From a virus (Duplodnaviria > Caudoviricetes), in IMG/VR virus record IMGVR_UViG_3300018481_000006, positions 1-61,541 of that record: DNA of 61,541 nt. One strand, given 5' to 3'. Every line of letters begins with the position of its first letter. Position 1 is the first letter of the stretch. The translations under genes and the position numbers were made by a program. This document shows positions 4,559 to 40,712 of this stretch, one piece after another. Below the pieces are notes generated by a model. That model did no database searches, was not told where the DNA came from, and was given only the letters and a program-made list of their open reading frames with translations.

Positions 4559-4563
4559 CGTGG

Positions 4564-6374: not shown

Positions 6375-6382
6375 GGACGGGA

Positions 6383-6411: not shown

Positions 6412-6577
6412 GGGCTTACAGAGCTTTATTACGGACCTTATTACGGACGTGGGCTGGGTGGGGCTGAGAGATTACTCGTGTGGGCAGTCGAGTAATCCGC
6501 TCTGTAACAGAGCAGTGCAGCACCGCTAGGCTGGCGAGCAGCCTAGCGGTGAACACTCCTCCTGTCAACCTACAGAA

Positions 6578-6811
6578 CTACGGTTTTGCAGAGGGCTGGG
6601 TGGAAGGGGAAGGGGTGAACCTCCGGGGGCGGACGTACTTGATGCGGTTGCGCCACTGCTTGACCAAGATCACCCGGACGATGGTGATGGTCGGATTCTG
6701 TGGCTGGTAGCGTGGCACCGGATGCAGCAACTCCCCGTTCGGCCTGAACACGCAATCCTGATGCTTGAAGTGCCGCTGATGGCAGCGGTAGCAGTGCGGC
6801 GGCGGCTTCAC
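6578..6811 (-). CDS. Hypothetical protein (CxxC)
   Basis: 77 aa, overlaps the upstream stop. Confidence 0.45.
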   Translation of the reverse strand: MKPPPHCYRCHQRHFKHQDCVFRPNGELLHPVPRYQPQNPTITIVRVILVKQWRNRIKYVRPRRFTPSPSTQPSAKP

Positions 6812-7191
6812 TTCTTCGCGTCTCGCTTCGCCAGCGCCCTTCTCTCCTTCATGTACTCGCGCTGTCGCTCGTTGTACTTGTCCCGGCTGCCGCGACGTGT
6901 AGCCAACGTCTCGGACGACCTGACCATCTCGGGCTGGCCTTCTGGTGCGGTGACCACGGTCTTGGTTTCCTCGACAGAGCGTGGCTGTCTCGGGCGACCG
7001 GGGGCAGTTTCCTTAAGCCCCCCGGGTACCCTCACCTCGACCTTCGCCTCGGGCGGCAAAACACTCTGTGCCCCAAGCCTTGCCTTCTGTTCTCCCACAG
7101 TCGCTCCCTTATCGGTGAGGTCGACCTTGAAGACGTGAGGCTCGTTGCTCCAGTGCTTCACCTTGCACAGCCTACATAGGGGGGCGTCCAT
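6808..7191 (-). CDS. Hypothetical protein (N-terminal CxxC-x3-H, basic C-terminal helix)
   Basis: GGAGG RBS; CRLCKVKHW; YNERQREYMKERR. Confidence 0.65.
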   Translation of the reverse strand: MDAPLCRLCKVKHWSNEPHVFKVDLTDKGATVGEQKARLGAQSVLPPEAKVEVRVPGGLKETAPGRPRQPRSVEETKTVVTAPEGQPEMVRSSETLATRRGSRDKYNERQREYMKERRALAKRDAKK

Positions 7192-7299
7192 GTTCCTCCG
7201 TAGCTAACGTAGCTAACGTACTCTGTTAGCCACCTGTTAGCTACCGTTTTACTGCGCCGACGTGCGTGTGGGGGACATACGTTGAGGCTCAAGCCCACC

Positions 7300-7317
7300 C
7301 CGGGGGGTACCCCCCGG
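7300..7317. repeat. Perfect 18-bp palindrome CCGGGGGGTACCCCCCGG
   Basis: Seen directly in the non-coding gap between the divergent late and early arms. Confidence 0.85.
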
Positions 7318-7858
7318 TCCATACGCTCGTTCGCGGAGGCGCAGTTCTGTGCGCGTATGTACGCACCCACCCCCACCCATACGTAACGTGCGCAACTCTG
7401 TGCAGCGTAGGTAAGTCCTTGATTCGTAAGGGTAACGTACAGAGGTGCGGCCACATGATGATAGGTGCGCTCTGTACTAGGGGCGGTGACGCGGGACGCT
7501 CTGTAGCAAGGCGAAGCGGTGCGAGAGTTGCGCGAGAGTGCGACGTGTTTCCCCTATGACGGGACGAGTCACGCGTCTACGTACGTGACTCTCGGCACAG
7601 AGCGGTGATCGTCGTATTCGTACGTGGAGTCATAGGGTTACGTACTCGCGGGACAGGAGACGTAGAGCGTACCGGTGACCGGACGCTATCGCGTCCCACT
7701 TGGCGCTTCCACTCTGATCCAGCGTCTCTGGTAGGCCACTTACAGAGTGAGAGCCACGTTTCACCCATAGACGGCTAGCAGGAGAATACTTTCGCGGCGA
7801 GGAGGGCGAAGTAACTCGTTGACCGAGCGAACGATTCCCCTATGAAAACTAGCTCGAT

Positions 7859-7888
7859 TTGACAACAGTCGACGCGTTCCGGCAAAGT
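7859..7888 (+). promoter_or_regulatory. Candidate early promoter (TTGACA; weak -10)
   Basis: Perfect -35 at 7859-7864 just upstream of the hairpin array; -10 (CAAAGT) is poor. Confidence 0.4.
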
Positions 7889-7896
7889 TCATCTCG

Positions 7897-8179
7897 TCGA
7901 CGGGGCGAAACCCCGCCGATTCCGGTCCTCCTGACTCAGCCCTAGCGGCGAGTCATACGAAGGAGGCAGAGCGCGACGTTGTTGCCACGTCGGTCCGGAT
8001 CACCTCTGTAGCGTCTAGCAATCGCTGCAGAGCGCGTAGGGATTCCCAACCCCTATGCGGCACAGAGGCAAAGCCGCCTGCAGCGGACCTCTGTGCAAGG
8101 GACAGTCGTCCCACATGCGTTCCCCCATCCCCGGGAGCGCATGTGAGACGGCTTTCGCCGTCTCCCGCCTGCAAGCGGG
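7897..8179 (+). ncRNA. Putative highly structured leader or ncRNA (about 9 consecutive stem-loops)
   Basis: Back-to-back inverted repeats with G-U pairs that favour the + strand; no credible ORF. Confidence 0.55.
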
Positions 8180-8203
8180 CACCCGCAACTCTGGAGCCAC
8201 CCA

Positions 8204-8419
8204 ATGAACAAGCAACCCATCCTCTCGTCCGTCGTCATGTCGTTCGCCGCCGCCGACTACGGTGTCGACGCAGTGATCGTCGCCACGCCCGTCGGCTTCG
8301 CCGCATCCTTCACCGAGGACGGCGCGACGTTCTCGCTGGGCACGTACGCCGTCTACGACGACGCGTTCGATGCCGTCGACGCGATCATCGGCTTCGACGA
8401 CGACACCTTCGCCCGCTAG
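8204..8419 (+). CDS. Small acidic early protein
   Basis: GGAGCCAC RBS; 71 aa, Asp-rich C-terminus. Confidence 0.7.
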   Translation: MNKQPILSSVVMSFAAADYGVDAVIVATPVGFAASFTEDGATFSLGTYAVYDDAFDAVDAIIGFDDDTFAR

Positions 8420-8477
8420 GGCCAAACCCGCAGCCCCGGGCACTCCCGCCCGGGGCGCACGCAACTCTGGAGCCACG

Positions 8478-8723
8478 ATGGAAAATCTCGCCCGTATCCC
8501 CACGCATCTCTCCGCTGCCCCTACAGACCAAGGCTGGAAGCTCGTTGCTTGGCACACGTCGCTGGACATAGCGGCCTACGTCACCGGCGGCGCGTTCCCC
8601 TGCGAGGTGCTGCACATCAGCGGCATTGCCTACGCTGACGCCTACGCTGTGCAAACCGTCGTCACCCTCTGTGGCATGGGCAAGCGCGAAGCCTGCCGCT
8701 ATATCGCCAAGACCTACCGCTAG
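8478..8723 (+). CDS. Hypothetical early protein
   Basis: GGAGCCAC RBS before MENLARIP. Confidence 0.65.
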   Translation: MENLARIPTHLSAAPTDQGWKLVAWHTSLDIAAYVTGGAFPCEVLHISGIAYADAYAVQTVVTLCGMGKREACRYIAKTYR

Positions 8724-8851
8724 CAGCAGTGCCGTGCCGGTTGCCTCACTGGAGGCATCCGAGACTGCACCGCAGTCCCGCAGGCTCACGCTATGAGCCT
8801 GCCTTCCCCCAAGCTCGCCGTGATAGGCGGGCGCAACAGAGGAGCCACACT

Positions 8852-9253
8852 ATGGAAACCGTCCAGCATGGTCTGCCCGAGATGGCAGCCGACCCGCACT
8901 ACACCGTAGAACCATGCGACTTTGGCAGCGGAGAAATCCACGTCGTCGCCAACTGGCGGACTGTGCGAGGGATGCGAATCGCGCTTGCCATGCAGACGTT
9001 CCCTCCGGGCTGCGAAGCAGAAGCGCAGGAAGCCTGCGACGCGCTGAACGATGCCGCTCTGGAAGCGATCAACGCCGAGCTTGCCAATCTCGGCGAGCAA
9101 CACGCACTGGAGGCACGCTGTGCCTTCGTGGAGTGCCCGCAGTGCGACGGCATTGGCGGCGAGTTCTTCGACGAAGGCGACGGTCGTGGCCCCTGCGGGC
9201 ATGGGTGCTACCGCTGCGCCGGTTCGGGCAAAGTGCCCCGCAACGATCCCTAA
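8852..9253 (+). CDS. Early protein with DnaJ-type CxxCxGxG zinc finger
   Basis: AGGAGCCAC RBS; CPQCDGIG...CYRCAGSG. Confidence 0.7.
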   Translation: METVQHGLPEMAADPHYTVEPCDFGSGEIHVVANWRTVRGMRIALAMQTFPPGCEAEAQEACDALNDAALEAINAELANLGEQHALEARCAFVECPQCDGIGGEFFDEGDGRGPCGHGCYRCAGSGKVPRNDP

Positions 9254-9278
9254 CCCAACCCTACAGAGGAGCAACACT

Positions 9279-9641
9279 ATGGGAATTTTCGGATGGAGTT
9301 TGCCTCCCGGCTGCACTCAAGCGCATATCGACGCTGCCTATGGCACAGAGCAACCTTGCGACGTCTGCGGCTACGACGTCGACGATTGCGTCTGTCCCGA
9401 GTGCCCGACCTGCGGCACGCAAGGCGCTCCCGAGTGCTACGTGACGCATGGCATGGTGCGGTCACAGGCGCAACTCGACGGCTTCGCTGCCCGTGAGATC
9501 GAGCGTGATAGGCAGGAACGCGAAGGGGAGGCGACGTCTAGAGCGGAGGCCGAGTACTGGGCAAGCCCGCAGCGCAAGGTAGAGGAAGCCGAGTTGCAAG
9601 CGTACTGGCGCGACTTGGAGGCGCATCACCGCAACACGTAG
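9279..9641 (+). CDS. Cys-rich early protein
   Basis: AGGAGC RBS; MGIFGWSLPPGC, CDVC...CVCPECPTC. Confidence 0.7.
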   Translation: MGIFGWSLPPGCTQAHIDAAYGTEQPCDVCGYDVDDCVCPECPTCGTQGAPECYVTHGMVRSQAQLDGFAAREIERDRQEREGEATSRAEAEYWASPQRKVEEAELQAYWRDLEAHHRNT

Positions 9642-9698
9642 CGTAGTGCCTGTTGCCGCCCGTGCATTATGCGGATGGCAACGGAGACTGTGCTGCAG

Positions 9699-9727
9699 TT
9701 GACAACATCTGTTGACAGAGGCATCAT
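9699..9727 (+). promoter_or_regulatory. Sigma70-type promoter TTGACA-N17-CATCAT with operator-like palindrome
   Basis: -35 at 9699-9704, -10 at 9722-9727; GACAAC-ATCT-GTTGAC at 9701-9716. Confidence 0.65.
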
Positions 9728-9780
9728 AGTCGTCCGGTTAGCCGCCGGATTCATCCCCCGTTTCACTCTAGGAGCCAACG

Positions 9781-11307
9781 ATGGCACGCATCAAACAGCG
9801 GACCGCTTCCGCTAACACGCAACTCCGTCTGGCGAAGGTTCTGCAGCAAGTGGGAACCGACGCACAGCAACCCAAGCCGATGATCATGGCGCAACCTTGG
9901 GCCACGGTGATCGACGCTGCGCCCCGCGTGGCGGTCCTCAACGGGCTGCGCTCTGTAACGGCTGGCGCTCCGGGCTTCGACTACGGTCCGGTCGGTCTGG
10001 ACCTGCTGCGCTGGATCACGATCAACAAGTACGCGCTGCTGATCGACCCTCTGTCGGTCTGGAACGCCGCTCAACAGAGCAAGGGAGCGCCCGCCGTCAT
10101 CGCCCCGCCGCCGCGTCAGCCGCGACTGCCGCGCTCTGTGCCGCCGAAGGCTGCGCCGACGCTGCCGCATCCCGGCTTTCCCCCTAGCAGCATCCCGGTT
10201 CAGCCCGTCTCCCCTCCTCCCGGCGCAACCGGCGTGACAGGCGACGACGCTGTGCCGGTGATCGCTGTGCCCGAGGCAGGAACCCCGGTCCCGGTCATCG
10301 TGCCGCCCGACGTCATCGCCCCGGGCAAGCCGCTGCCGGCTGAACTGGCGCATCCCGAGTGGAACTGGCAACCCGCTGCCGTCGTGTTCGACGTGCCGGG
10401 GCTGCGTGGCAACGTGGCAGTGTGGCCGATGCAGGGTACCGAGGGAGCGCATCCCCGGGCCTACAAGCTGGACAAGGGCTACCGGTGGCCGGTCGATCAT
10501 CTGCAATGGGCGATCTTCGCTGCCGGTCAGTGCCCCGCCAAGGGCATCTGGAACTGGGGACAACGCGGATCGGGAAAGACCGAGTTTGCCCGTCAGTTCA
10601 GCGCCCGTACCGGACGTCCGTACTTCGGGATCACGTTCACGCAAACGATGGAGCCGAGCGAGTTCATCGGCGACAAGGGAGCGAAGAATGGGAACACCGA
10701 GTTTGAGGCCGGCGCAATGATCCTCGCGCTTGAGGAGCCGATTCCTGCGGTGATCCTGCTAGACGAGATCACCCTTGGGCAGAGCGGGCACATCACTGGC
10801 CCGCTGAACGAGATCGTGCATCCGGCGTGCAGCTACTGCATCCCGAGCAATGGTCGGCGTATCGACTTCAGCGACGGTCACTTTTTCATCGCTGCGGACA
10901 ACACGAACGGGACGGGTGACCCGACGGGCTTGCATCACGGCACGCAGCCGATCAACAGAGCGACGTCGGACCGGTTCAGCTACTTCAACCGGTTCACGTA
11001 CCTCCCGAAGGACGACGAGATCGCCATGCTGATGGACCGCACTGGCTGCGATCTGTCGCTGGCGGGGCGTACGTGGACGATCCTCGACGCTCTGCGCAAG
11101 AAGGTCGACACCGGTCTGTTGAGCGATCCGCCGTCGTCACGTGAGGCGCTGGCGTTCTGTAGCGCGGTGACGTGGGGCTTCGACGAGAAGGATTCGTTCG
11201 AGAAAGCCTTCGTCGCCAAGTACGCCGAGGAGTCGCAGGAGGAAATGCGCGTCACGTTTGTGGCGTGCTTCAAGGCCGAGGGCGATGCCGCCACGGTCAC
11301 GCCGTAA
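9781..11307 (+). CDS. MoxR/CobS/CbbQ-type AAA+ ATPase with Pro-rich N-terminal region
   Basis: Walker A GQRGSGKT, Walker B ILLDE, IAADN sensor, NRATSDRF arginine finger. Confidence 0.9.
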   Translation: MARIKQRTASANTQLRLAKVLQQVGTDAQQPKPMIMAQPWATVIDAAPRVAVLNGLRSVTAGAPGFDYGPVGLDLLRWITINKYALLIDPLSVWNAAQQSKGAPAVIAPPPRQPRLPRSVPPKAAPTLPHPGFPPSSIPVQPVSPPPGATGVTGDDAVPVIAVPEAGTPVPVIVPPDVIAPGKPLPAELAHPEWNWQPAAVVFDVPGLRGNVAVWPMQGTEGAHPRAYKLDKGYRWPVDHLQWAIFAAGQCPAKGIWNWGQRGSGKTEFARQFSARTGRPYFGITFTQTMEPSEFIGDKGAKNGNTEFEAGAMILALEEPIPAVILLDEITLGQSGHITGPLNEIVHPACSYCIPSNGRRIDFSDGHFFIAADNTNGTGDPTGLHHGTQPINRATSDRFSYFNRFTYLPKDDEIAMLMDRTGCDLSLAGRTWTILDALRKKVDTGLLSDPPSSREALAFCSAVTWGFDEKDSFEKAFVAKYAEESQEEMRVTFVACFKAEGDAATVTP

Positions 11308-11355
11308 CGCAACCAATCCCGCCGCCGTGACAGGCGGCTTTACAGAGGAGCCACC

Positions 11356-12531
11356 ATGTCGTACTTCAATCATCCGGTCAAGGTATCGGTGTTCATGGCC
11401 GCTATCCCGGGCCTCGTTGAGCGTCTGTTGCGCCGCGTCCCGGGAGGCGAGGGACGCATCATCGTGCAGGTCATCTTCGTCGGTGACATGGCTTGCGCCG
11501 TGTGGACCGAGAGCGGTGTCGGCGCGTTCCGCATGATCCGGGGCACGATCAAGCTGCCCGCACTCAAGGGCGGCGCGGTGATCGACCGTGCCAAGGCGAA
11601 CCGCTGGATCGGCTATGTGATCCATGAGGTTTGGCACATGGTGTTCACGTCGTCCCCGGTGTGGAGCCACTACGCACAGTACAACCCCGGCATCAAGCGA
11701 GCGATTGCCAACGCTCTGGAGGATGCGCGTATCGAACGCAGCGGGATGGAGCTTGGCTACGCCGAGGGATTCAACGTCGTCGGCAAAGACCTCATGCAGC
11801 ATCTGCTGACGACGGGCGGAATGAACGTCGACCCCAACGATCCGCGTCAGGTGGCATGGGCGTTCGCCGTGGGTTGCCGTGGCTACGGTGTGCAAGGGGA
11901 AGCGCGTCTGTTGTCGCGGCTTGATCCCCGTATCGCCGCTCTGTTGAAGCGCACTAAGGCGAAGGTCGACGCGATTCCGGCGACGATCCTCCCCGCCGAG
12001 GGCACTAAGGCGACGTGCGATCTGGCGACGTGGGTGTACAGCGAGTTGAAGAAGATCGGCAAGAAGGCAGCGGCAGAGGAAGCCGCAGAGGAAGCCGCGA
12101 AGGAAGAGCCGCCGATCTGCGTCAACCCCGCCCCGGTCCCGCAGCGTCACGATGCGAACGACGAGCCTGCACCCGAGGATGTGGATGTGGGCGAGGTGGA
12201 AGCGGGTGACGCTACCGACCAGACGTACGACGACGAGGGTGCGCCGAGCGAGGATGGCGGCGACGGCGACGACGACGGCGGCTTCGGCGGTGACGCTGGC
12301 GACGACGCTGACGACGGCGACGGTGGCGAGGGTGACGGTGGCGAGGGCGAGGGCGACGGCGACGGCGAGGGCGGTGACGCTGGCGACGGCGAGGATCACG
12401 GCGGCACGGCCCGGGGCGGTGGCGATACGGTGAACCCGCTCAAGGTAGGCGACGACGTGGTGTGCCCAGACGGTAGCGCGGGCCGCATCGTTTCGATCAA
12501 CGAGGGCGTCGCTGAAGTCGTCCCTCTGTAA
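11356..12531 (+). CDS. CobT-N-like protein with HExxH metallopeptidase motif and Asp/Gly-rich linker
   Basis: VIHEVWH and NALEDARIE motifs; acidic low-complexity region. Confidence 0.8.
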   Translation: MSYFNHPVKVSVFMAAIPGLVERLLRRVPGGEGRIIVQVIFVGDMACAVWTESGVGAFRMIRGTIKLPALKGGAVIDRAKANRWIGYVIHEVWHMVFTSSPVWSHYAQYNPGIKRAIANALEDARIERSGMELGYAEGFNVVGKDLMQHLLTTGGMNVDPNDPRQVAWAFAVGCRGYGVQGEARLLSRLDPRIAALLKRTKAKVDAIPATILPAEGTKATCDLATWVYSELKKIGKKAAAEEAAEEAAKEEPPICVNPAPVPQRHDANDEPAPEDVDVGEVEAGDATDQTYDDEGAPSEDGGDGDDDGGFGGDAGDDADDGDGGEGDGGEGEGDGDGEGGDAGDGEDHGGTARGGGDTVNPLKVGDDVVCPDGSAGRIVSINEGVAEVVPL

Positions 12532-29483: not shown

Positions 29484-32400
29484 CTACCACTTCGCCACCG
29501 TCACCGTGTAGCTCTTCAGCATCCGGTTGTTGAGTTCCTCGATCTTCTTGTCGATGCGGTTCTTCTCTGTAGCCTCGTCGTCGACCTTGAGCTTGCCGTC
29601 AATGATCGCCGCCTTGCGCTTGTACAGTTCGCCGGTCTGCTTGGTCATCGCCTTGAAGGTGGCGTCGATGCCGGCCCAGCCGGGATGCTCCTTCGCCAAC
29701 TCGCGCCGCTCCTCTGGCGTACCGTTCTTGGCGATGTTCTGGAACTCGTTGATCTCGGCCTTGGCGTCCTGCAGGGCTTCGTAGACCTTGCCCTTGGAAG
29801 GCTCGGCCAGCACCCGCCGCACCACCGGATACTCCTTCGTCTCTGTAGCCTCGCCGGTGGCGATCTTCTTCAGCGTCGACAGACCACGGCCCAGCACGGT
29901 CGGGATGCCGGGGAGCGCGGTGCCGGCCCAGAAGTCGATGCTGTCTGGGCTGACGTCGATGCCACCCGCCTTGGCCGCGCTGCCCTGCGTCAGCGAGTTC
30001 AGCCCGCTGGCGATAGCGCGCGACGTCGCGCTGGCGCTCATGCTGCCGGTCTGTGACTCCGGCTGCTTGGCCCCGTAGGCGCTGCTCTGCTCGCGGTAGA
30101 TGCGACTGCCGAAGCGGTTCTCGTTCATCCCGAATTCGATGAACGGATCGACGGCAGTGGGTGCCACGGTCTTTGCAAGCCATCCAGCGAGCGTCTTGCT
30201 ATCCGCACCCCCAATCGGGTCGAACGCGCTGTGTGCGGCCTTCAGGCCGGCGAACGCGGACCCCACCGGCGAGCGCCCGAAGAACGCGTCGGCGGCGAAG
30301 TTGCCCATCGCGTAGAACGCGTTCCAGCCGTACGGCAGCGGCAGCTTGGGGCCGTGCGCGAACGGGATGATGTTGGTCGAGCGGTCCCAGTCGGAAAGCT
30401 GCTGGTAGTCGGGGATGCCGTTCTCGTCGTCGTCGCCCCCGGCGTTGCCGGTGAGTCCGGCCACGAAGCCCATGCCGAACAGACCGGCAGCGATGGCCTT
30501 GCCCTGCGGCGAGCGCATCGCTTGGTAGATACGCGCGGTGCCCTGCACGGCAGGGTTGAAGAACAGGAACAGAGAGGTTAGCTCGCTGCTGGTGCCCTTC
30601 CTCTGGAAGTTGGTGGTCAGGTTCTTCACATAGTCGGCGGCGTTGGCCTTCGTCCAGCCGGCCTCGACCAGCACCTTGTAGGCGATCACCCGTGGTGCCG
30701 CCTCGATGGACGAGTTGACGTCCTCCAGCCACTTCACCGCGCCCTCGGCGTGCGACTTCTTGTACGCGTCCAGCGCCTTGCCCTTGATCCCGGTGCCGGT
30801 CAGGCGCTGCTCCATCGCCTTCAGCTTTTCGGCGCGGTCCTTGAGGCTTTCCAGAGCGAAGAACTTGGTGATGCCGCCCTGCTCGGCGAGGTCGTGGTAC
30901 CACTGGCCCAGACCGGCCTGATGGTTGGGGTCTGTAATCGCCTTGTAGATGTCCTTGTGGCCCTTCAGGGCCAGTATCTGCTTGAGTACCGTCTTCTCCA
31001 TCCCCGGCGGCATGTTCGGTTTGTTCTTGTCCGCCGCGATGTTGTAGAACGCCGTCTGTACGTCGCGTGCCGCGTTGATCAGCGCCCACTCCGGGTTGAG
31101 CGTGGTCATCATCGAGGCAAGGAACTTGTTGAATTTGCGCGCCTTGTCCAAGATCACGCCGTCGCCAGTGGCGCTGGCCCCGGTTATCGCGTTGGCGAAA
31201 TCCTCCTGATGGAGATCGATCTTGGTCGGTATCCCGTTCTGGTACGCTGTCACCACGTTGGGGTTGGTGAGATCGTTGTCGTTGGTGTAGCGGATGGTGC
31301 CCTTCTCGGGATCGAAGGTGCGCCGCGCCTTCATCGGGTTCAGCGTCCAGAACTTGGGGTCCGGAAAATCCGCCGCCAGATTGGCGAGCGACAGAGCGAC
31401 TTCGTTCTTGCCGGCGCGCACGATCTTCGCCTCGGCGTCCAGCAACAGATGCGAGACGACGTGCTTGGCTTGGGTTTCCCGGCCCATCGCGTACTTCAAC
31501 AGAGACGCCTTGCCGGAGAAGCCACGGCCCACGCCCAGCCCGCTGGTGATCTCTGTGGTGTCGTCGTCGTCCAGACCCTTGAGCGGTCTGTAGTGCTGGT
31601 ACTTGCGCAGGCCAGCGGCGGTGTCGGCGTCGATCAGGCCCGCCTTCTCCATCCGGCTGACCTTGTCCTCGCTGATCTCGTCGGCGATCCTGCCGATCTC
31701 GTTTAGCTCGGCGGCGTACGGCACGCTGGCGTAGGTGCGCAGCGTGCGGTTGGCTTCGTCTGTAGACATCCCGGAGCCGTCGGTGATCGGCCCGCCGTCA
31801 CGATCCTGCGTGCGCTGCTCGATCTGCTCGTTGCGCTCCTCGGCGTGCTGCGCGATCAGGAAGGTGTCGATGTCGTTCATCGTCGCGCCCTTCTTCATCG
31901 CCTTGCCGATCTGCTCCTCCATCGGCTCCGCGTACTTGCGCTGGAACCGCTCCATCTGCTCACCGACCTTGCCGGCGAACAGCGTGATCTTCTGGTAGAC
32001 GTTGGAGGCTGCGCTGATCACGCCGCCCTTGCGCACGATGTCTTCCTGCAGCGAGCGCACGTCGATGTTCGCGTCCTGTGCGCGTCTCTGTAGATTGCGC
32101 CGCAACTCCTTGCCCTTCTTGTTGAACAGACCGGTCGCGTCCAACGCACGGTCGACGTTGCGGGTGAACCAGTTCTGCCCCGGCTGCGGCGAGGTGTCGT
32201 GGTCGTACAGAGCATCCGGGCCACGCGGCCACGCGTCGTTGAAGCCCTCCTCCAGAGCGGAAGCCTTGCGCCGTTCGAGCCTCACGCCGCGCTCGCGCAG
32301 CATGTTGATCGCCTCTACAGAGGTGGCGGCGTTATGCTCGGAGTAGTCGTCGCGGATGTCGCCGTCGGGGGTCACCGCCTTGTAGATGAACCACCGCTGG

Positions 32401-35400
32401 TTGGGCGCGTTGTAGGTCGCCATGCCGACGATCTTGTCGCCCTTGGTGGCGTAAATCTCCTGCGGGTTGAGCAAGTCCTTGCGCGAGAACTTGACCTGCG
32501 CACGCCGCCCAGAACTCCTCGACAGAGCGCGCGTCGCGGTTTCGCGGTTCAGCCGGTCGGCGTAACGCTCGGCTAGCCGCCGCGCCGCTTGGCGTTCGTA
32601 TCGTCTCTGAGTACGCTCAACAAACGGCCCCGCTTGGCCTGCAGTTCCTTGGTTGGCTTGGTCACCTTCTGCTGGCGCATTATGTCCAGCACCAAGTCCA
32701 TAGAGTCCTTTGATACGGTTTCCAAGCCCTGCTTCCCGGAGGAGTCCTTGGTACGGTTTGGTTTCATCGGTGAATAGGTTCCTGAAGTCGACGTTGGCAG
32801 CGATCAGATCGTCTGTAAGTGCGCCGTCGTTGAGCAGTTCCATCGCGTCACGCGATTCGCCGGTGCGCTCCTGAAGCTGGTACAGAGTCTTGGCCCATGC
32901 CCAGATCGTGGTCTGTACCTCGGCAGGCGTCCACTCCACGCCGGTGCGCTTGGTGAGGATGCGCGCCGCCTCGCGAGTGCGTGAGTTCATGGCTAGGTAG
33001 CCATGTCCCTTGCCGGAGTCGAGTCCGGTCAGCTTGCCGCCGAATATCTCCTGCTCGACCGCTGCGTACGCCGCCATCCACGCGTCGTTGGTGACCTCGC
33101 TGGCGTCACCGATCAGGTTGCGGAAGAACGAGTTGACCTTCGGTCCCGACAACAGAGAGATCATGCTGCCCGGGTCTTCGGCGGTCAGCGAGCGGATCGA
33201 GTTGTTGACCAGCGCCGGCAGCACAGAGAGATCGGCGATGCGGGCACGAGCCACCTTGGAACGCTTCTCCAGAGCGGATAACTCGGCGACCAGCGTGTCG
33301 TGACCTTTCCTCGGGTTGATGCCGAACATCTTGGCGATGTCGCGCAGGTCGTCGGTTTCGCGCGTCTCCATCGGCGGAACGCGGATCGCCCCACGCAGGA
33401 TTTGCTTGATCGTCTTCGCATCTGTGGGCCGTCCGGCCTTGTCCCAGTCGCGCCATACCGCCAGCGAGTTGCGCAGGTTGTCCTGCACGCTGACCCGTGG
33501 CGACATCGACGACAACAGAGCGGCGAAGCGCGGCGCGTCGATGCCGAACACCTGATGCAACGCCGCTACAGAGCCGGTGTACCAGTCGCGCTTGGCGCGT
33601 CCGGCGTGGGCAACCGCCGCCATCTCCTGCGCGCTCGGCACGTGCTGCAGGGTGCGCAGGAAGTTGAAGGCGATCTGCGCCATCGAGCCGTCTTTGAGGT
33701 ACAGCTTCTTGGCCTCGGCTTCGGTCAGGAACCGCTCGGCGGCGCGCAGCGCCTTCGCCTGACTGCCGGTGGTCTTGGCGAGTCCTTTGCGCGAGTAGCG
33801 GATGTCGGGGTTGCGTGGATCGAACGTGCCGACGTTCTCGGTCGCGCTCTTGATCTGCCCCGGCTCAAACGCGATGTACGAATCCTTGCCGGCGTCCTCG
33901 TACTTGTTCTTGTAGACGATGCCGTCGTGACCCGATTGCTTGGCGAGGTCGATGACCTCCTTCCAGTTTGCGTTGTCGCCCATGTCGCGCACCCGCATGG
34001 GGTTCTGTAGCGACAGGTAGGTTGCGGTCAGCGTGCCAAGGTCTTCCATATCAGACTCGGCGTTCGCGCTCTCAGCAAACTGGCGAGCGGTACCGCGCCC
34101 CGCCAGCACCGCACGCTCCTCGGCGTGCCAGCTTTCGTCGGTGACATCCTCCGACGTCGTGCCGTCATTCATCTTCCAGTACCAGCGCCCGTCCCGTTTG
34201 TACGCGGTGACCCCGTCCACGGCGTCGTCGATCTGCTTGCCGGTAGCGCGCTCCTGCGCAGCCTGAAACGTGCCGAAGTGCATCGGCCCGCTGGGCGTGT
34301 AGTTGTCGGGATCGGAAGCGAAGCTGCCGTGGTGGTAGACCGTCATCGGCCTGCCGGTCGGCGTCACCACCTTGCTGTCCTTGAACCAGTCCTTGAACGC
34401 CGCCGTGTCGGTTTGCCGCTCTGCGGTGTCGACTTCCGGGTTGCCGTACTCATCGACCGGACCGATATAGCCCATGCCGAACTCGGCACGAGAGAACTTG
34501 ATGCCACCCAACAGAGGCTTGATGATCCGCCGCATCGGGTCGGGCAGCTTGCTCAACGTCTCGGGATCGTCCAGCACCCGGTCGACCAGCTTGCGCAGCC
34601 GCTCTTCCGCCTTCTCGCCCCACTCGGTCTTGAAGTGGCGTCCGACCACATCCTGTTGGGCCGGCGTCAGGTTCTGTAGACGCTGCGCAATCGCCGGACG
34701 CTCGGCCTTCACCAGCGCCTCCAGACGTTCGCGCTTTTCCTTGACCTTGGCCTTGGCCGCGTCGACCTTGGCCTGCTCCTTGGCCTTGACCTTCTCCTCC
34801 TTCACCCGCTCGCGCTCGATGAGAGCGAGGCGCTTCTGTTCCTCTGTAAAGCCCTTCTCGCCCTCGGCGCGCCACTCGTTGATCTGGTCGTACGCCTCGA
34901 CGATGCCTTCCTCGTCGGCGACGGCGCGGATGAAGTGGTTCTTGTGATCGCCGATCAGGTCGTCGAAATCCGGGTCGCTCTTCTTGGTGGCGATCTTCTC
35001 GTCCCAGATTTGCTTCGCCGTCTGGTACGCCTCGCTACGCCTGACCTGACCGCTGGCGGCTTCGCCGCGCCGGTTCTTCGCCTCTGATGCGTTGACCTGC
35101 CCGAACACCCGCTCCAGTTCCGGGTAGGTGATGTCGCGACGCCGGTACATATCGTAGGCGTCGGCCCAGTAATCCTGCACGTCCTCGGACAGCTTCACCC
35201 ACGGGAACTCGCCGTCGGCTTCGTCCGGCTCCATCTTCTCGTCGTAGAACCACGCCGCCTTCTCGCGGACTTGGGCCTTGGTCAGCTTCTCCAGTTGGCG
35301 ATGCTCGACGATCAGGTCGCGCACCCTGCGGTTCAGCACCCGCAGGTCTTTGAACATGCGCGTCTCTTCTACAGAGCGCGGCTTCTTCTTGACGTTGGGG

Positions 35401-38400
35401 TCGGCGAGCTTCAGCGCCTCGGCCAGCGCCTGCTTCCAGCGCGCCAGCATGGCAACGAACTCTTCCATCATCCGCACCACGAGCGGCCTCTGTTCAACGT
35501 CAACAGAGTCGTGGAGCATCTTCCAGAACTCTTCGTCCATGAACGCCGTGCCCATCGCGTCGGCGGACACTTCGTCGCGAGTCTGGTCGCCAATGTCCTC
35601 CAACGACGGGCGCGTCTCGTCGCGCGCCTTGGCTTCGGCCTCCATGCGCAACTTGAGGTTGTGCTGGTACGTCGCGAACATTTTGCGGTCGGCGATCTTG
35701 TCGACCTCGTCCATGAACTTCGACCACAACGCCGGGTTCAACTCGCGGATGTTGTGGCCGATCTCGTGGCCGATGACGAACATCTCCGGCTTCTTGGCGT
35801 TGGCGTTGACGTAGATGGTGTCCGGGTCGCCCGGGAGCTTGAACCCATCCATCGCGTCGACACGCTGGTTGGCCGGCGTGTAGAACTGCACGTTCTGGTC
35901 GAGCAGCTTGTGGATGACCAGCGAGAAGTTCTTGTACTTATCCGGCGTGTCAACAAGCGTGACGCTGTGCTTGTTGCCGAACTCCGGCGCAAGGTATTCG
36001 TTGACCAGCACCTCGCGCTCGTCGCGGCTGGCTCCCTCCGGGACGGTGCGCTCTGTAGCGGTGCGGCCCTTGCGGCGAATCTTCTTGCGCAGCACCTTCA
36101 GCGCCTCGTCCGCCGTGCGCTGCTTCGGCTCCTTCTTCTCCTCTGTAGGCTCCTTGGCCGCTTCCTCGGCAGCCGCGTCAGCCTCCTCCTTGATCGACTC
36201 GTGAGTGCGAAAGTCGTCGGCGATCTTGTCCAGAATGCTGTTGATCGTGTCGTCGCGCCGAACCGCGATGCGGATAACCGTGCCGTCCTCGTAGTGCTGC
36301 TCGATGCGCTGGAACTTGCCGTTCTTCAGCCAGACGTGGAGCGTGGCCGGCTCGCCGTTGCCGTCGATGCCGTCGAAGGAAAGGTCCGGCTCTAGCGCCT
36401 CTGCTTTCCCTTCATCTTTGGCGGCAGCTTCTTTCCCTTGCTCGCCTTGTTCCACTCGTCCACGTTTACGCCCTGCTTTGCCAGCTTCTTCCGATTCGCG
36501 TTGAAGAACTTCTGCTGCGCCTTGCTTTGGAACGGCATCTTTCGCCTCCTTGGCTTTGCTGACCTCCTTGGCCTTCTTGGCGGCGGGAGCGTCGTCCTTA
36601 AGCAGCACCGTGGCGGTGGGGTCGTAGTCGCCATCCACCTCGCGGTCGCCGTGCGCGACGGTGAGTCGCACCCGACCACCCTTGCCCTTGCCGACCTTGG
36701 TCACGCGCACGAACTTGCTGCCGCCGACGCTGATCCAGTTGCCGACCCGAAGATGGCTGACCGGCGTCTCGCCCTCGACCGGCGCTTTTTCAGCAGTAGC
36801 CTTCGGCGCGGGTTTCTGCTCTGTAACCGGCGGCGCTGGAAGTTTCGGCGCGACCTTGGCGGCCTTCGCCTTGCTGGTCTTCTTGGCGTCGGTGGCGGCG
36901 GGAGGCTCTGTAGTCTCTGTAACCACCGGCGTTTCGGTGATAGTGGGCGCTAACTCGGCATCGACCTTGGCGGCCCGCTCCTCCAGAACCTCGGTGATCG
37001 GGGTGATCTCTGTGGTGCCGTCGACGGGCGTCTGGTCCTGCACCGCCTTGACGTTCGGCCCACCCGGCGTGGTGGCGGCCTGCATGACCACGTTGCCGGC
37101 AGCGTCCTTGGCGGTGACCGCGACCTTCGGCCCGATCTGGCTGGCGACCTCCAGCTTGCTCTGTGGGATACCGAGAAGGCTGGCGCGCTGCTTGTCTGTA
37201 AGGGGGCCGTGGATGTTGAGGATGGCCTTGGCCTTGTCCGGGTTGGTGGTCAGGTACAGACCATCGCCACCCTTGAAGATTTTCGACACGCCCTTGGGGA
37301 TCGCCGGGATCGGTGTCCCTGACCGGATGCCGGCGATGTACACCGTGTCCTTGGGGTGCTTCGGGTCGGTCATCGCCGCGATCTGCGCGTTGATGTCGCT
37401 CGACGGCTCGGGCATGGTGAACGCCGCCTCGGCCTGCCGCTCGTCCACCACTGGCGCGTTGGCGGCTGTAGCGGGCGCTGCGGTGACCGGAGGTGCGCCG
37501 GTAGCCGCGACGTCCGCTGGGGCTGCCACTGGCGGCTGCAGACCCTGCGCCGTGGCCTTGGGAGCGTGGCGGTCCGCCAGTGCGTCCAGATCGGCCTGCA
37601 CGCGGCCCAACGTCGCGTAGATGGCGGGACGCGCACCGATGGAGTCGAGCGCGGCCTGTGCGTTGCCAACCAGTTCCTTGAGGCCGGTCTGTACCGCCGG
37701 CAGGTCGCCCTGCCGAGTCAGCACGCTGATGCGCTCGGCCAAGTCGTCCGCCGCGCCCACCGGATCGCCGCCCGGAGGCTGCAGCCCACGGCGCTCGCCC
37801 GGGGTTATCGCCGGCATCTCGCGCTCCGGCAAGCTCTCGACGGTAGCGTTGGGGTCGCCCTTCAGGTACCGCTCCTGCTCGGCAGCGTTGCGCCCACGCG
37901 CGCCGGCCACCGCGCCTGCGCCGACGCCACCGACTGCGCCGACAGCGGCCTCGTTCAGGTAGCTGCGAATCGCCTCGGCGTCGGCCAGCGTCTGTTGCGC
38001 GCCCCAGCGTTCGGCCACACCCTGCAGCCCCTCTGTGCCGCCGTCGAGGAAGCCTTGCGCCAGACCGCCCTTGATCACCCGTCCGACCACGTTGGAACCG
38101 TGACCGGCCCCGCGCAGCACCCGCCCGATGGCGGTCATGTCGACCAGCGTGTCCAGCCCCGCAGAGCCGGCAGCGGCAGCACCGATGCGGCCAAGCTCCG
38201 GCTTCGGCCCCTCGCCGGCCTGATAGCGTTCCTCGGCCCCGCCGTAGATGCTGCCTGCCGTAGCGCCGAGATTGAGGCCGTAGCTGGCGGCGGTGGCCCC
38301 CACCAGTTGCGCGGTGTACTCGGCAGCCTTGAGCTTGGTGGCCTCGCTGATCGCGTTGCGGCCCGCCATCTGTGCCGCCTGCTGGGCTGCCGCCTCGGCG

Positions 38401-39122
38401 GACAGACCCCCGGCGATCAACTCCTTGGCGGCAAGCTCTGTAGCCTTCTTCTCGATCATGCCGCCGACCATCGCCTGCAGCGGCTTCTTCAGCAGCGCCT
38501 TGCCGACGACGCCGCCGACCCCGGCTCCGGTCAGGAAGCTGGCCGCGTTGCCGACCACGTTGCCGGCGGCGTAGCCCAACCAGTCTGTAAAGGAACCCTT
38601 GTCGGAGAGGGCGACGAAGATGTCGTCGTTGTCCCGGGACAGACCCTCGATGTCCTTGCCGACCGCCTTGTACTTCTCCATCCCCCAGTCTTTCAGCCCC
38701 TCCAGACCAAACGCATCGGCACCGTAGGCCACCAGACTGGCCCCGAACTGCTTGTTCTGCTCCCAGCCTCCGATCTGTAGACCCCGACCGAAGTGGCTGC
38801 GGCTGTCGTCCTTGGGCGCTGCCTGTCCAGCAAAGATCGGCTCCCCGTAACGGGCGGCGAAGTCCGGGCTGACCTCCCGCCGCGCTGGCGTGGACGGCGT
38901 CGCGGACGGCGTGGCGAAGATCGGCTCGCCGTAGCGGGCCACCATCGGGTCGACGGGTGGCGTGGCTCCCGTCGGCTGTGGGTTGACCGGGTCTGTAGGG
39001 ATCGCCATGCGCGGCGGCGCGGGGGGCGGTGTACTGGAGCCGCCGTACACCGGGAGTCCGCGCCGCGCTTGCTGCGAGGTCTGGTACAGAGGGTCGTCGT
39101 CTTCCTGCAGACCGTAGGCCAT
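29484..39122 (-). CDS. Giant polyvalent internal virion (ejection) protein, 3212 aa
   Basis: HEIGH metallopeptidase motif (35754-35768); ART-PolyVal-like block FKDWFKDSKVV...YH...GHDGIVY...QIKSATENVGTFDP; SPRVSV/GPKVNSF/TNDAWM domain; LPD38-like C-terminus (LPLPYGW, PTAVDPFIE..NENRFG). Confidence 0.85.
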   Translation of the reverse strand: MAYGLQEDDDPLYQTSQQARRGLPVYGGSSTPPPAPPRMAIPTDPVNPQPTGATPPVDPMVARYGEPIFATPSATPSTPARREVSPDFAARYGEPIFAGQAAPKDDSRSHFGRGLQIGGWEQNKQFGASLVAYGADAFGLEGLKDWGMEKYKAVGKDIEGLSRDNDDIFVALSDKGSFTDWLGYAAGNVVGNAASFLTGAGVGGVVGKALLKKPLQAMVGGMIEKKATELAAKELIAGGLSAEAAAQQAAQMAGRNAISEATKLKAAEYTAQLVGATAASYGLNLGATAGSIYGGAEERYQAGEGPKPELGRIGAAAAGSAGLDTLVDMTAIGRVLRGAGHGSNVVGRVIKGGLAQGFLDGGTEGLQGVAERWGAQQTLADAEAIRSYLNEAAVGAVGGVGAGAVAGARGRNAAEQERYLKGDPNATVESLPEREMPAITPGERRGLQPPGGDPVGAADDLAERISVLTRQGDLPAVQTGLKELVGNAQAALDSIGARPAIYATLGRVQADLDALADRHAPKATAQGLQPPVAAPADVAATGAPPVTAAPATAANAPVVDERQAEAAFTMPEPSSDINAQIAAMTDPKHPKDTVYIAGIRSGTPIPAIPKGVSKIFKGGDGLYLTTNPDKAKAILNIHGPLTDKQRASLLGIPQSKLEVASQIGPKVAVTAKDAAGNVVMQAATTPGGPNVKAVQDQTPVDGTTEITPITEVLEERAAKVDAELAPTITETPVVTETTEPPAATDAKKTSKAKAAKVAPKLPAPPVTEQKPAPKATAEKAPVEGETPVSHLRVGNWISVGGSKFVRVTKVGKGKGGRVRLTVAHGDREVDGDYDPTATVLLKDDAPAAKKAKEVSKAKEAKDAVPKQGAAEVLQRESEEAGKAGRKRGRVEQGEQGKEAAAKDEGKAEALEPDLSFDGIDGNGEPATLHVWLKNGKFQRIEQHYEDGTVIRIAVRRDDTINSILDKIADDFRTHESIKEEADAAAEEAAKEPTEEKKEPKQRTADEALKVLRKKIRRKGRTATERTVPEGASRDEREVLVNEYLAPEFGNKHSVTLVDTPDKYKNFSLVIHKLLDQNVQFYTPANQRVDAMDGFKLPGDPDTIYVNANAKKPEMFVIGHEIGHNIRELNPALWSKFMDEVDKIADRKMFATYQHNLKLRMEAEAKARDETRPSLEDIGDQTRDEVSADAMGTAFMDEEFWKMLHDSVDVEQRPLVVRMMEEFVAMLARWKQALAEALKLADPNVKKKPRSVEETRMFKDLRVLNRRVRDLIVEHRQLEKLTKAQVREKAAWFYDEKMEPDEADGEFPWVKLSEDVQDYWADAYDMYRRRDITYPELERVFGQVNASEAKNRRGEAASGQVRRSEAYQTAKQIWDEKIATKKSDPDFDDLIGDHKNHFIRAVADEEGIVEAYDQINEWRAEGEKGFTEEQKRLALIERERVKEEKVKAKEQAKVDAAKAKVKEKRERLEALVKAERPAIAQRLQNLTPAQQDVVGRHFKTEWGEKAEERLRKLVDRVLDDPETLSKLPDPMRRIIKPLLGGIKFSRAEFGMGYIGPVDEYGNPEVDTAERQTDTAAFKDWFKDSKVVTPTGRPMTVYHHGSFASDPDNYTPSGPMHFGTFQAAQERATGKQIDDAVDGVTAYKRDGRWYWKMNDGTTSEDVTDESWHAEERAVLAGRGTARQFAESANAESDMEDLGTLTATYLSLQNPMRVRDMGDNANWKEVIDLAKQSGHDGIVYKNKYEDAGKDSYIAFEPGQIKSATENVGTFDPRNPDIRYSRKGLAKTTGSQAKALRAAERFLTEAEAKKLYLKDGSMAQIAFNFLRTLQHVPSAQEMAAVAHAGRAKRDWYTGSVAALHQVFGIDAPRFAALLSSMSPRVSVQDNLRNSLAVWRDWDKAGRPTDAKTIKQILRGAIRVPPMETRETDDLRDIAKMFGINPRKGHDTLVAELSALEKRSKVARARIADLSVLPALVNNSIRSLTAEDPGSMISLLSGPKVNSFFRNLIGDASEVTNDAWMAAYAAVEQEIFGGKLTGLDSGKGHGYLAMNSRTREAARILTKRTGVEWTPAEVQTTIWAWAKTLYQLQERTGESRDAMELLNDGALTDDLIAANVDFRNLFTDETKPYQGLLREAGLGNRIKGLYGLGAGHNAPAEGDQANQGTAGQAGPFVERTQRRYERQAARRLAERYADRLNRETATRALSRSSGRRAQVKFSRKDLLNPQEIYATKGDKIVGMATYNAPNQRWFIYKAVTPDGDIRDDYSEHNAATSVEAINMLRERGVRLERRKASALEEGFNDAWPRGPDALYDHDTSPQPGQNWFTRNVDRALDATGLFNKKGKELRRNLQRRAQDANIDVRSLQEDIVRKGGVISAASNVYQKITLFAGKVGEQMERFQRKYAEPMEEQIGKAMKKGATMNDIDTFLIAQHAEERNEQIEQRTQDRDGGPITDGSGMSTDEANRTLRTYASVPYAAELNEIGRIADEISEDKVSRMEKAGLIDADTAAGLRKYQHYRPLKGLDDDDTTEITSGLGVGRGFSGKASLLKYAMGRETQAKHVVSHLLLDAEAKIVRAGKNEVALSLANLAADFPDPKFWTLNPMKARRTFDPEKGTIRYTNDNDLTNPNVVTAYQNGIPTKIDLHQEDFANAITGASATGDGVILDKARKFNKFLASMMTTLNPEWALINAARDVQTAFYNIAADKNKPNMPPGMEKTVLKQILALKGHKDIYKAITDPNHQAGLGQWYHDLAEQGGITKFFALESLKDRAEKLKAMEQRLTGTGIKGKALDAYKKSHAEGAVKWLEDVNSSIEAAPRVIAYKVLVEAGWTKANAADYVKNLTTNFQRKGTSSELTSLFLFFNPAVQGTARIYQAMRSPQGKAIAAGLFGMGFVAGLTGNAGGDDDENGIPDYQQLSDWDRSTNIIPFAHGPKLPLPYGWNAFYAMGNFAADAFFGRSPVGSAFAGLKAAHSAFDPIGGADSKTLAGWLAKTVAPTAVDPFIEFGMNENRFGSRIYREQSSAYGAKQPESQTGSMSASATSRAIASGLNSLTQGSAAKAGGIDVSPDSIDFWAGTALPGIPTVLGRGLSTLKKIATGEATETKEYPVVRRVLAEPSKGKVYEALQDAKAEINEFQNIAKNGTPEERRELAKEHPGWAGIDATFKAMTKQTGELYKRKAAIIDGKLKVDDEATEKNRIDKKIEELNNRMLKSYTVTVAKW
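36392..36538 (-). CDS. 48-aa basic protein overprinted in an alternative frame of the giant gene
   Basis: AGGAGG (36550-36545) 6 nt before ATG; MPFQSKAQQKFFNANRKKLAKQGVNVDEWNKASKGKKLPPKMKGKQRR. Confidence 0.65.
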   Translation of the reverse strand: MPFQSKAQQKFFNANRKKLAKQGVNVDEWNKASKGKKLPPKMKGKQRR

Positions 39123-39131
39123 CGTCGCTCC

Positions 39132-40712
39132 CTACTGCGTCAGCCCGTAGGTTTGCCGGCCCGCACCCGGAGCCGTCGCTGGCACCGGATTGGCCTTGGC
39201 TGCCGCTGCCGCCGCCTGCGCTTGGCGCTTATCCCATGCTTCGCGAACCGAGGGGGGCACAAAGCGCAACCGCAGCGGCTTGTCGACGTTGCCGGAGTCG
39301 GTGATCCACTGCCCGTTCTTGTCGCGCTGCACCCCTATCGTGCCGTTCACGATCCCGTTCCACGTCGAGTTGAGCTTGGAGATGTTCATCGGGTTCACCT
39401 CCAGACCGTTGTCCTCGATCATCCCGTCAACCGCGCCAATCGCCTCGCCGATCTTCGCTTCCAGCGTGCCGGTGCCGCCCTGTTCCTTGCTGTCCTTGGC
39501 GATGGTGTCGGCGGTGACGCCGTTCAGCTTGAGCATCAGGTCGAGCGAACGACGCTGATCATCGGCCTTGCGTCTGGCGGTGCGATCTTCGATGCTGGCT
39601 TTCTTCTGCTCGACGGCAGCCCCGGCCATCGCTCCTTTGTAAGCCCGGTCTGAAGCGCGATCAACGCCCTGCACATCGAACTCGCGCTTGACCTCCTTCA
39701 GCCGGTCGATGCCAAGCTGGGTGGCGGCCTCCCGCGACGTGATCTCTGACTGGACTTCCTTGGCCTTGAGCGCCACCGCCTGCTCCCTCTGTCCGAAGTT
39801 GAGGATTTCCAGAGGCGACAACTGCTCGGCCAGCATGACCTTGATCTGTGCTTCGTTGACCGGCACGGTCTTGGTGCTGCCGTCCGGCATCTGGCGGTCG
39901 TACGACGCGTAGCGCCGGCCCTGCTGATCGGTCTTGTCGACCCGCCACGAACCGTCGACGTAGGTCGGGTCCATCTCCTTGACCAGTCCCGGGATTGCCG
40001 GATGGTCCGGGTTGGTCGCCGCCATCGTGGCGAGCGCGGCGCTCTTCGCCATATGCTCTTGCACGCCGCTGCTGGCGAGTTGCTGGATCATCTTCGACGC
40101 CTCGGCGGGGTGCGTCTTGCGCAGCAGCATGAACATCTCGGGCATCAGTTGGCGGTTCAGCGCGTAGCCGTCCTTGATGTGGTCGACCACCGACTTCTGT
40201 GGCGGCTGGATCAGCGGCGCAGGCGCGCTCTGTGCTGGCGGCGGCGCAGGTCCGCCACCCACCACGCCCTCGGGCGCAGTCAGCGCAGCAACCCGTGGCG
40301 CACCAGCCGGCGGCACCGGCGCAGCGGTCTGTGGACCGGATAGCGCCTGCCCAACCGGCGCGGACGGCTCCGGCGACAGCGGTGGCGGCACCGGTCCGGG
40401 TTCCTGCTGCGCGGTGGGCACGGTCGGTGGCGGCGGCGGTCCGGCCCCCGGCGTGCCACGCGCACCCTGCACGGCCTGATCGATGTACTGCGTGGTCAGG
40501 TCGTACATCTTCTTGGCACGTGCCTTCTCCTCCGCGTACTCCTCCTGCTCCTGCGTGAACTTGGTCTTCAGGCGTCCCTCTGCGGCCTCGGCGCGCACGT
40601 CGGCGTTCGCCAGCAGGTCGCCACGCCGCTTGTCCTCCACGATCTTGGAGGTGCTGTTGTACGAATTGACGAAGGCTTCACCGAAGCCGGGAATCGACAG
40701 TCCCCCCATCAC
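39132..40712 (-). CDS. Internal virion (ejection) protein
   Basis: Lies between the pilot-like protein and the giant protein; Ala/Pro-rich, helical. Confidence 0.65.
   Translation of the reverse strand: MMGGLSIPGFGEAFVNSYNSTSKIVEDKRRGDLLANADVRAEAAEGRLKTKFTQEQEEYAEEKARAKKMYDLTTQYIDQAVQGARGTPGAGPPPPPTVPTAQQEPGPVPPPLSPEPSAPVGQALSGPQTAAPVPPAGAPRVAALTAPEGVVGGGPAPPPAQSAPAPLIQPPQKSVVDHIKDGYALNRQLMPEMFMLLRKTHPAEASKMIQQLASSGVQEHMAKSAALATMAATNPDHPAIPGLVKEMDPTYVDGSWRVDKTDQQGRRYASYDRQMPDGSTKTVPVNEAQIKVMLAEQLSPLEILNFGQREQAVALKAKEVQSEITSREAATQLGIDRLKEVKREFDVQGVDRASDRAYKGAMAGAAVEQKKASIEDRTARRKADDQRRSLDLMLKLNGVTADTIAKDSKEQGGTGTLEAKIGEAIGAVDGMIEDNGLEVNPMNISKLNSTWNGIVNGTIGVQRDKNGQWITDSGNVDKPLRLRFVPPSVREAWDKRQAQAAAAAAKANPVPATAPGAGRQTYGLTQ

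Follow-up and report, generated by a model that had tools for sequence, protein, structure and literature searches.

An out-of-frame small gene from a widespread phage protein family, probably expressed from within the linker of a giant polyvalent virion protein gene

The DNA analyzed here, referred to throughout as the window, is the complete virus record IMGVR_UViG_3300018481_000006 (61,541 bp, with direct terminal repeats), and the element under study is a 48-amino acid (aa) open reading frame (ORF) lying inside the gene for a 3212-aa polyvalent virion protein, hereafter the giant (Table 1). An earlier reading of the DNA, made from the sequence only, had claimed an out-of-frame ORF of this length with a Shine-Dalgarno (SD) sequence in front of it; both were present as described, with the SD reaching 36551, one base beyond the 36550 that had been given. 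The nested ATG lies 2584 nucleotides (nt) from the start of the giant, and since (39122-36538) mod 3 = 1 it is read in frame +1. The ORF falls wholly within the same-strand ORF of the giant, in another frame, which is the architecture of an embedded gene. Its product, P0002, is a basic protein that begins with MPFQSKAQQKFFNAN, the Met-Pro N-terminus being encoded by ATG-CCG at 36538, and contains DEWNKASKGKKLP further inside the 48 residues; no lipobox or signal peptide was apparent in its sequence. The host-frame translation over the nest is DAVPKQGAAEVLQRESEEAGKAGRKRGRVEQ..., and neither Pfam nor PHROGs placed a domain on this part of the giant. A second AAGGAGG is found at 36563-36569 (minus strand), 18 nt from the first, with both copies inside a short direct repeat whose host reading is rich in Lys, Glu, and Ala. 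The small frame stays open for 54 codons 5′ of the nested ATG, and a promoter and terminator scan of 36000-37200 returned 0 sites of either kind.

Table 1. Positions of the nested gene, its putative initiation signal, and the host gene in the window
Feature	Position	Strand	Details
Host gene, 3212-aa polyvalent virion protein	29484..39122	minus	Identified by ORF, Pfam, and PHROGs
Nested 48-aa gene (P0002, 147-nt ORF)	36392..36538	minus	ATG 36538-36536, TAG 36394-36392; frame +1 of host
Shine-Dalgarno-like AAGGAGG	36545..36551	minus	6-nt spacer CGAAAG, then nested ATG; host-frame reading is Lys-Glu-Ala codons
Dual-coded host stretch	36390..36539	minus	About host residues 862-911; Gly/Glu/Ala/Lys/Gln-rich linker by translation

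Taken alone, an ORF of this size with an SD is within chance in this phage, which has a GC content of 64% and where nine stretches of at least 90 codons are open in frame +1 of the giant; it is homology that exceeds chance. Codon composition also sets the nest apart. The sequence-only reading had described the host frame here as a linker rich in A/T-ending codons, and the measured G+C content at third codon positions (GC3) bears this out: over the nest, host GC3 was 0.327, compared with a giant-wide mean of 0.849 (standard deviation 0.098), and this was the lowest value (rank 1 of 3164) among sliding 49-codon windows along the giant. Read in the small frame, the same stretch has a GC3 of 0.857, close to the giant-wide figure.

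Stand-alone homologues of the peptide were readily found. In a database of 5.8 billion proteins, all 128 candidate small proteins matched P0002 at E ≤ 0.1, the best at E = 6.7e-16 with 89% identity, and the 120 matches listed are 43-82 aa in length and 60-89% identical to P0002. A profile built from 127 sequences retrieved 1547 cluster representatives at E ≤ 1e-3, 372 of them at E ≤ 1e-10, among 1.84 billion. The consensus of the 127-sequence alignment (A4) reads MPYKSxAQExFFNANRxKLEKQGVNVDEWNKASKGKKLP..., with M1, P2, S5, Q8, F12, N13, G23, V24, V26, E28, W29, N30, S33, K34, G35, L38, and P39 near-invariant; P0002 carries every one of these positions. This homology places P0002 in a large, unnamed phage family of 45-60-residue proteins, and the overlap is of a rare kind in which the nested gene can be recognized independently, through hundreds of free-standing relatives. 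The Met-Pro start is nearly invariant, and free-standing and fused proteins share the same N-terminus, the module beginning at residue 1 or 2 in 116 among the 150 profile matches listed. An AlphaFold2 model of P0002 based on the 127-row alignment (predicted local distance difference test score, pLDDT, 86.9) predicts helices at residues 6-14, 16-21, and 26-33 followed by an extended basic tail rich in Lys and Arg. A search with the single peptide for longer proteins gave only five, of 85-98 aa, and fused forms emerged only from the profile search; behind the module, the 64 long profile representatives carry DUF6321 in seven cases and DUF5872, NUDIX, SET, Ferritin, LAGLIDADG_3, DUF6055, and a glycine-zipper domain in one case each. 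The gene for the large terminase (TerL) adjoins the free-standing copy at three loci (L001, L011, and L061).

The family seems to be absent from cultured and deposited phages, as tblastn of three members against 50,697 deposited phage genomes gave no match at E ≤ 1, and the literature searched yielded no published description of either the family or the nested arrangement. A remoter subfamily (L017-L027 and L029; e.g. L019, 1581-1736) is 40-46% identical to the window peptide, with the first nine residues identical, and was free-standing at every locus seen. Two further free-standing members (L047 and L048) lie on genome contigs binned to archaeal metagenome-assembled genomes (MAGs), Methanofastidiosum and Micrarchaeota; the contigs may come from phages and have been binned wrongly, or may belong to archaeal viruses.

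Loci were collected from IMG/VR, 30 by a peptide scan and 80 through an alignment (A1; the best 80 of 247 relatives), and from a scan of GTDB genome contigs, which added 19 loci, all on MAG contigs. The resulting 129 rows, window included, were classified and, after seven duplicate contigs had been dropped, left 122 distinct loci. At 85 of these the gene is free-standing, in agreement with the statement in the sequence-only reading that peptides of this type occur as small genes of their own in uncultured phages. At 16 it forms the N-terminal part of an in-frame ORF of 103-628 aa. At the remaining 21 it is nested within same-strand host ORFs of 867 to >4038 codons, beginning 136 to 2229 codons into the host, on contigs with GC contents of 0.31-0.67; since only the best-scoring loci are represented, the nested fraction (17%) should not be taken as a population estimate. 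The host frame is −1 relative to the small gene in all nested loci, and the other frame is used by none. Nested copies start with ATG at 19 loci, with GTG at one (L015), and with neither at one (L084). Where GC is ≥ 0.49, a simple 4-mer test found an SD-like motif ahead of the start at 7 of 9 nested loci; where it is ≤ 0.40, at 1 of 12. Gene callers do not allow one gene inside another, so standard annotation misses the window copy along with at least 21 more.

Relatives of the giant itself were also sought. Single-sequence searches of viral contigs with 300-400-aa flanks of the giant found none, so two-sequence alignments were needed to reach them. An alignment of the C-terminal part returned two loci, L130 and L131. 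The first, found through the giant alone, is 48% identical and has a 3563-codon ORF whose nest, at 4537-4695, keeps the same frame and has an ATG and an upstream AAGGAG; the second is the contig of L005 (42% identity), in which the nest is present as well. The two closest relatives of the giant thus both retain the alternative frame together with a start codon, a check that the sequence-only reading had proposed, and the nested contigs number 22 distinct ones including the window and L130. At L005 the giant is represented by two ORFs, 4233-6821 and 6584-12115, with an overlap of ~240 nt some 220 codons past the nest, for which a genuine split, a frameshift, or an assembly error could be responsible. 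An alignment of the N-terminal part gave, in addition to two more distant giants considered below, five short matches (L135-L139), in which tblastn found no family match.

The surroundings of the nest within its hosts are heterogeneous. BLAST clustering and Pfam searching of the 600-aa flanks of the 21 nests revealed no domain common to all, and the BLAST clusters were small. Upstream flanks include RelA_SpoT (five loci), His_Phos_1, 2′-5′ RNA ligase, and Acb1, and downstream flanks GGACT, DUF3293, Zeta_toxin, and SAM lyase. As the flanking modules vary, the conserved piece is the small gene itself, and the idea that the nest always stands before or after one particular domain was rejected, the flanks having no common neighboring domain. 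In an unresolved tree of 104 cores, the nested state was clustered, requiring 8 changes as opposed to 17.4 in shuffles (0 of 500 as low); with 42 columns the tree is too short for counting origins, and it is compatible with a single origin of nesting. At three loci (L003 and L006, both 6001-6165, and L129, 8001-8159) the gene begins 7-9 nt past the stop of an ORF of 1997-2664 codons that runs off the end of the locus; these are the separated counterpart of the nested architecture.

Because the same gene occurs both nested and un-nested, the loci form a natural experiment in which the constraint of dual coding can be measured, and the synonymous-site comparison that the sequence-only reading had suggested singled out the small frame as the selected one. 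Across 19 distinct nested cores, the small frame had a synonymous diversity (pS) of 0.60 and a nonsynonymous diversity (pN) of 0.18, giving a pN/pS of 0.30 as compared with 1.80 for the host frame, a frame-by-frame estimate that is biased for overlapping genes. In the free copies (n = 59), the small-frame pN/pS was 0.22 (pN 0.20, pS 0.91) and that of the host-type frame 1.83. With a pN of 0.18 in nested and 0.20 in free copies, conservation at the protein level is equal in the two settings. Of 40 residues compared among the window, L130, and L005, 10-13 differ in the small frame, as against 16-22 in the host frame. The diversity pattern indicates purifying selection on the small frame of the nested copies, but not on the host frame.

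What the host frame does require is to stay open. Of the free cores, 55 of 58 contain at least one stop in the host-type frame, typically 2-3, and 43 of 58 contain a stop in the other frame; host-frame stops were found in 0 of the 19 nested cores. Nested copies never use T at third positions where it would create a host-frame stop (0/208) and use it rarely at other synonymous sites (12/211), compared with 247/801 and 266/853, respectively, in non-nested copies. These counts indicate that the host frame is actively held open through synonymous choice. The surplus avoidance of T, at sites that carry no stop risk, suggests either that T-initial host codons (Phe, Leu, Ser, Tyr, Cys, and Trp) are disfavored in the linker or that the nested copies share ancestry. 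Nested copies thus combine a loss of third-position T with a drop in synonymous diversity.

Taken together, homology, recurrence in one frame, and the selection pattern argue that the nested gene is real, selected, and initiated on its own, and that it is read in frame +1 within a linker between domains of a polyvalent virion protein, a reading to which we assign a probability of about 0.8. Several observations weigh against it. The SD is not a rare motif in this DNA, AAGGAGG occurring 12 times in the window when 5.2 were expected, with five copies on the coding strand within the giant. The nest is missing from the two more distant giants reached through the N-terminal alignment (L133 and L134, 31-34% identity), so a giant can do without it. 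At L084 (7995-8171) the family start position reads AGG, with an in-frame GTG six codons upstream, and the start may have shifted or the copy may be decaying; together with an insertion or deletion within the core of L015, this means that some nested copies may be in decay. To these are added the bias of frame-by-frame pN/pS already mentioned, the fact that the lower pS of nested copies (0.60 vs. 0.91 in free ones) could be explained in part by closer kinship and not by dual coding, and the absence of any ORF of at least 1000 aa from the locus at 95 of 101 non-nested loci.

Dispensability, the lost start codon of L084, the altered core of L015, and the commonness of the heptamer within the giant would all be compatible with the nest being a fossil, that is, a free-standing gene swallowed when two neighbors fused into the giant, intact in appearance but untranslated, with only the linker mattering. 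We consider this unlikely. Nested proteins are conserved to the same degree as free ones, with the small frame and not the host frame showing the low pN/pS, and 20 of 21 nested copies keep an ATG or GTG. The small frame has moreover persisted over GC contents of 0.31-0.67 and in giants that are only 42-48% identical, where an unselected frame would have decayed.

A second alternative is that programmed +1 frameshifting yields a truncated N-terminal product of the giant ending in the small domain, with no separate 48-aa protein being made. The long open stretch ahead of the nested ATG in the window, which offers no stop to a shifted ribosome, would permit this. At the low-GC nested loci, however, the small frame is closed 0-13 codons 5′ of the ATG (0 at L104, 1 at L042 and L123, and 4 at L002), which argues against a frameshift product; in addition, the near-invariant Met-Pro start coincides with the N-terminus of the free and fused proteins, and SD-like motifs stand ahead of the start in the higher-GC loci. 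Frameshifting is therefore regarded as very improbable.

Still less credit is given to the converse explanation, in which the host-frame peptide (of the type N-A-V-Q-E-P ... G-E-R-G-R-V-E-Q) is the selected linker or conserved motif of polyvalent proteins and the small ORF its by-product, at times picked up by gene callers. The host-frame readings of nested loci are visibly alike, and the avoidance of T even without stop risk (12/211 vs. 266/853) implies some compositional constraint on that frame. Nevertheless, the small gene occurs without an overlapping long ORF at the 85 free-standing loci, the host-type frame is interrupted in 55 of 58 free cores, the host-frame pN/pS is 1.8, the GC3 signal tracks the small frame, and the module sits at the very N-terminus of most of the profile matches listed. 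Finally, an assembly or sequencing error joining two genes and a small intergenic one into an apparent giant can be set aside, for although the window is a metagenome-assembled virus record and the giant of L005 is split shortly after its nest, the same in-phase arrangement recurs across different samples, on 22 distinct contigs in all, each side of the nest being open for hundreds to thousands of codons, and a single error would not hold open a stretch that normally contains about three stops.

Under the favored reading of an independently initiated nested gene, we infer that the late mRNA of the giant would be the source of both products. Ribosomes starting at 39122 would read the nest as a hydrophilic linker, and others would initiate internally at the SD and the ATG at 36538 to make the small protein, which, having a start of its own, could accumulate at a stoichiometry unlike that of the giant. 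The small gene would be the older element, free-standing in most phages and often a neighbor of the large terminase gene. The ORF of a giant would have extended across it in one lineage or a few, using the sole frame that had been cleared of stops, and the resulting dual-coding piece would now lie between very different domains of polyvalent proteins. Because the family is mostly free-standing, it is more likely that the giant frame spread over a pre-existing gene, and the nested copy is probably an older free-standing gene later covered in this way and not a de novo overprint. The sequence-only reading had called the gene overprinted; it is nested out of frame, as that term implies, but birth de novo inside the giant finds no support in a family of this distribution, and this origin is the one part of the earlier reading that was not supported.

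The closest known architecture is that of the two-component spanins, whose genes occur in embedded, overlapped, and separated forms according to Kongari et al. 2018 (PMC6139136). As with lambda Rz1 inside Rz, the smaller of two same-strand phage genes is contained entirely in the larger, is read in another frame, and has its own start; related phages have the gene in other arrangements, which here are nested, immediately after the stop codon of the giant, or fully separate. The proteins, by contrast, are unrelated, P0002 having no evident lipobox or signal peptide; the host is a multi-domain virion protein in which the overlap is confined to a linker; and a further architecture, in-frame N-terminal fusion to other proteins, is found here. 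As most free copies are not beside a giant gene, a two-component partnership of the spanin type is not indicated.

De novo overprinted viral genes, the subject of a review (PMC8227390), offer a second comparison, since there too one stretch of DNA encodes two proteins, with one frame strongly constrained and the other tolerant. Genes of that kind are expected to lack relatives beyond the overlapping stretch and to be phylogenetically restricted, and the nested gene was rejected as a member of this class: it is not restricted to one lineage, being represented by 1547 clusters and mostly free-standing, with 85 free and 16 fused copies among the 122 loci. If one of the two readings is new, it is more likely to be the linker frame of the host. 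The host itself resembles the polyvalent proteins of Iyer et al. 2017 (PMC5512222) in its LPD38 and sub-threshold ART-PolyVal domains, and polyvalent-type conflict domains (RelA_SpoT, Acb1, Zeta_toxin, SAM-lyase, GGACT, and others) stand beside the nest in giants. In a term search, the main text of PMC5512222 contained no mention of overlapping, frameshift, internal initiation, or linker, and an out-of-frame gene is not described there as a module. Polyvalent proteins would in this way gain an unexpected element, a "module" that is read in another frame. What is new, as judged from these sequence comparisons, is an embedded phage gene that derives from a pre-existing, widespread family and lies in the linkers of polyvalent giants, always in one frame.

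With regard to function, similarity searches gave little guidance, and this weighs against any firm assignment. Neither P0002 nor its 95-aa upstream-extended form matched a Pfam or PHROGs family at E ≤ 1, and for ten further family members at E ≤ 10 the sole results were sub-threshold noise (DUF3921 and YwhD at E ~0.1). Foldseek searches with the AlphaFold2 model returned a single, meaningless PDB match (E = 7.5), hence no solved structure, and 13 weak matches in BFVD, none at E ≤ 0.001 and all to uncharacterized phage proteins. The nearest named neighbor in the ESM Atlas (score 0.89) was a cluster of which 15% of the members carry DUF3008 (PF11450), and it counts as no more than a lead. DUF3008, a family of small proteins which we take to have a similar N-terminal motif, was rejected as a relative at the Pfam cut-off of 24 bits: its hidden Markov model (HMM) gave no match to P0002 at E ≤ 1, to the ten further members at E ≤ 10, or to the six-frame translation of the record at E ≤ 10.

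A role as an adaptor, or in nucleic acid binding, for virion-associated or co-injected proteins is tentatively suggested for the small module, on the grounds that a short N-terminal module is common to unrelated enzymes and that its neighborhoods are those of packaging and virion genes. T4-type capsid-targeting peptides are likewise short N-terminal modules common to unrelated phage internal proteins, and the present module similarly heads NUDIX, SET, ferritin-like, DUF6321, and DUF5872 proteins. This analogy serves a guess at function only. A more speculative extension, which we hold to be doubtful, is that the nest is a mobile dual-coding module of polyvalent virion proteins whose frame +1 product, alone or heading NUDIX, SET, ferritin-like, or DUF6321 cargo, would bring proteins into the capsid or onto packaged DNA so that they are co-injected. 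If so, the family would be a new and widespread virion-cargo targeting signal, and nesting would be a way of making the adaptor in excess from the mRNA of the giant cargo itself. In any case, the analysis flags a large family (the 1547 representatives) with a confidently predicted structure, uncharacterized, found in packaging and virion neighborhoods and at the head of diverse enzymes, as a candidate adaptor.

The assignment of the host gene rests on several domains. The C-terminal LPD38 scored 98.8 bits and DUF7178 33 bits (Pfam cut-off 27 for both), ART-PolyVal reached 29 bits, below its Pfam cut-off of 31.2, and a HEIGH zincin-like motif is present; the C-terminal third also matches PHROGs 14770, 616, and 10691. 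By its domain content the giant is a polyvalent protein, i.e. large and multi-domain, with LPD and effector domains. In the window it belongs to a virion module, its upstream neighbors including genes for an internal virion protein, for a tail fibre, and for a virion structural protein. A portal protein had been expected by position directly upstream of the giant, where a 526-aa ORF (39132-40712, minus strand) had no PHROG match at E ≤ 0.001.

A second collapse of GC3 was observed within the giant at codons ~2120-2183 (window 32573-32767, minus strand), where the host frame falls to 0.27-0.43 and frame +1 has values of 0.77-0.83. Local GC drops to ~0.52-0.57, the host reads as a Gly-rich linker, and the zone holds a 64-aa ORF in frame +1 (32767-32573) with an ATG start. 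This ORF had no relatives in the viral contigs, the collected loci, or the 5.8-billion protein set; the zone may be foreign inserted DNA or may hold another nested gene.

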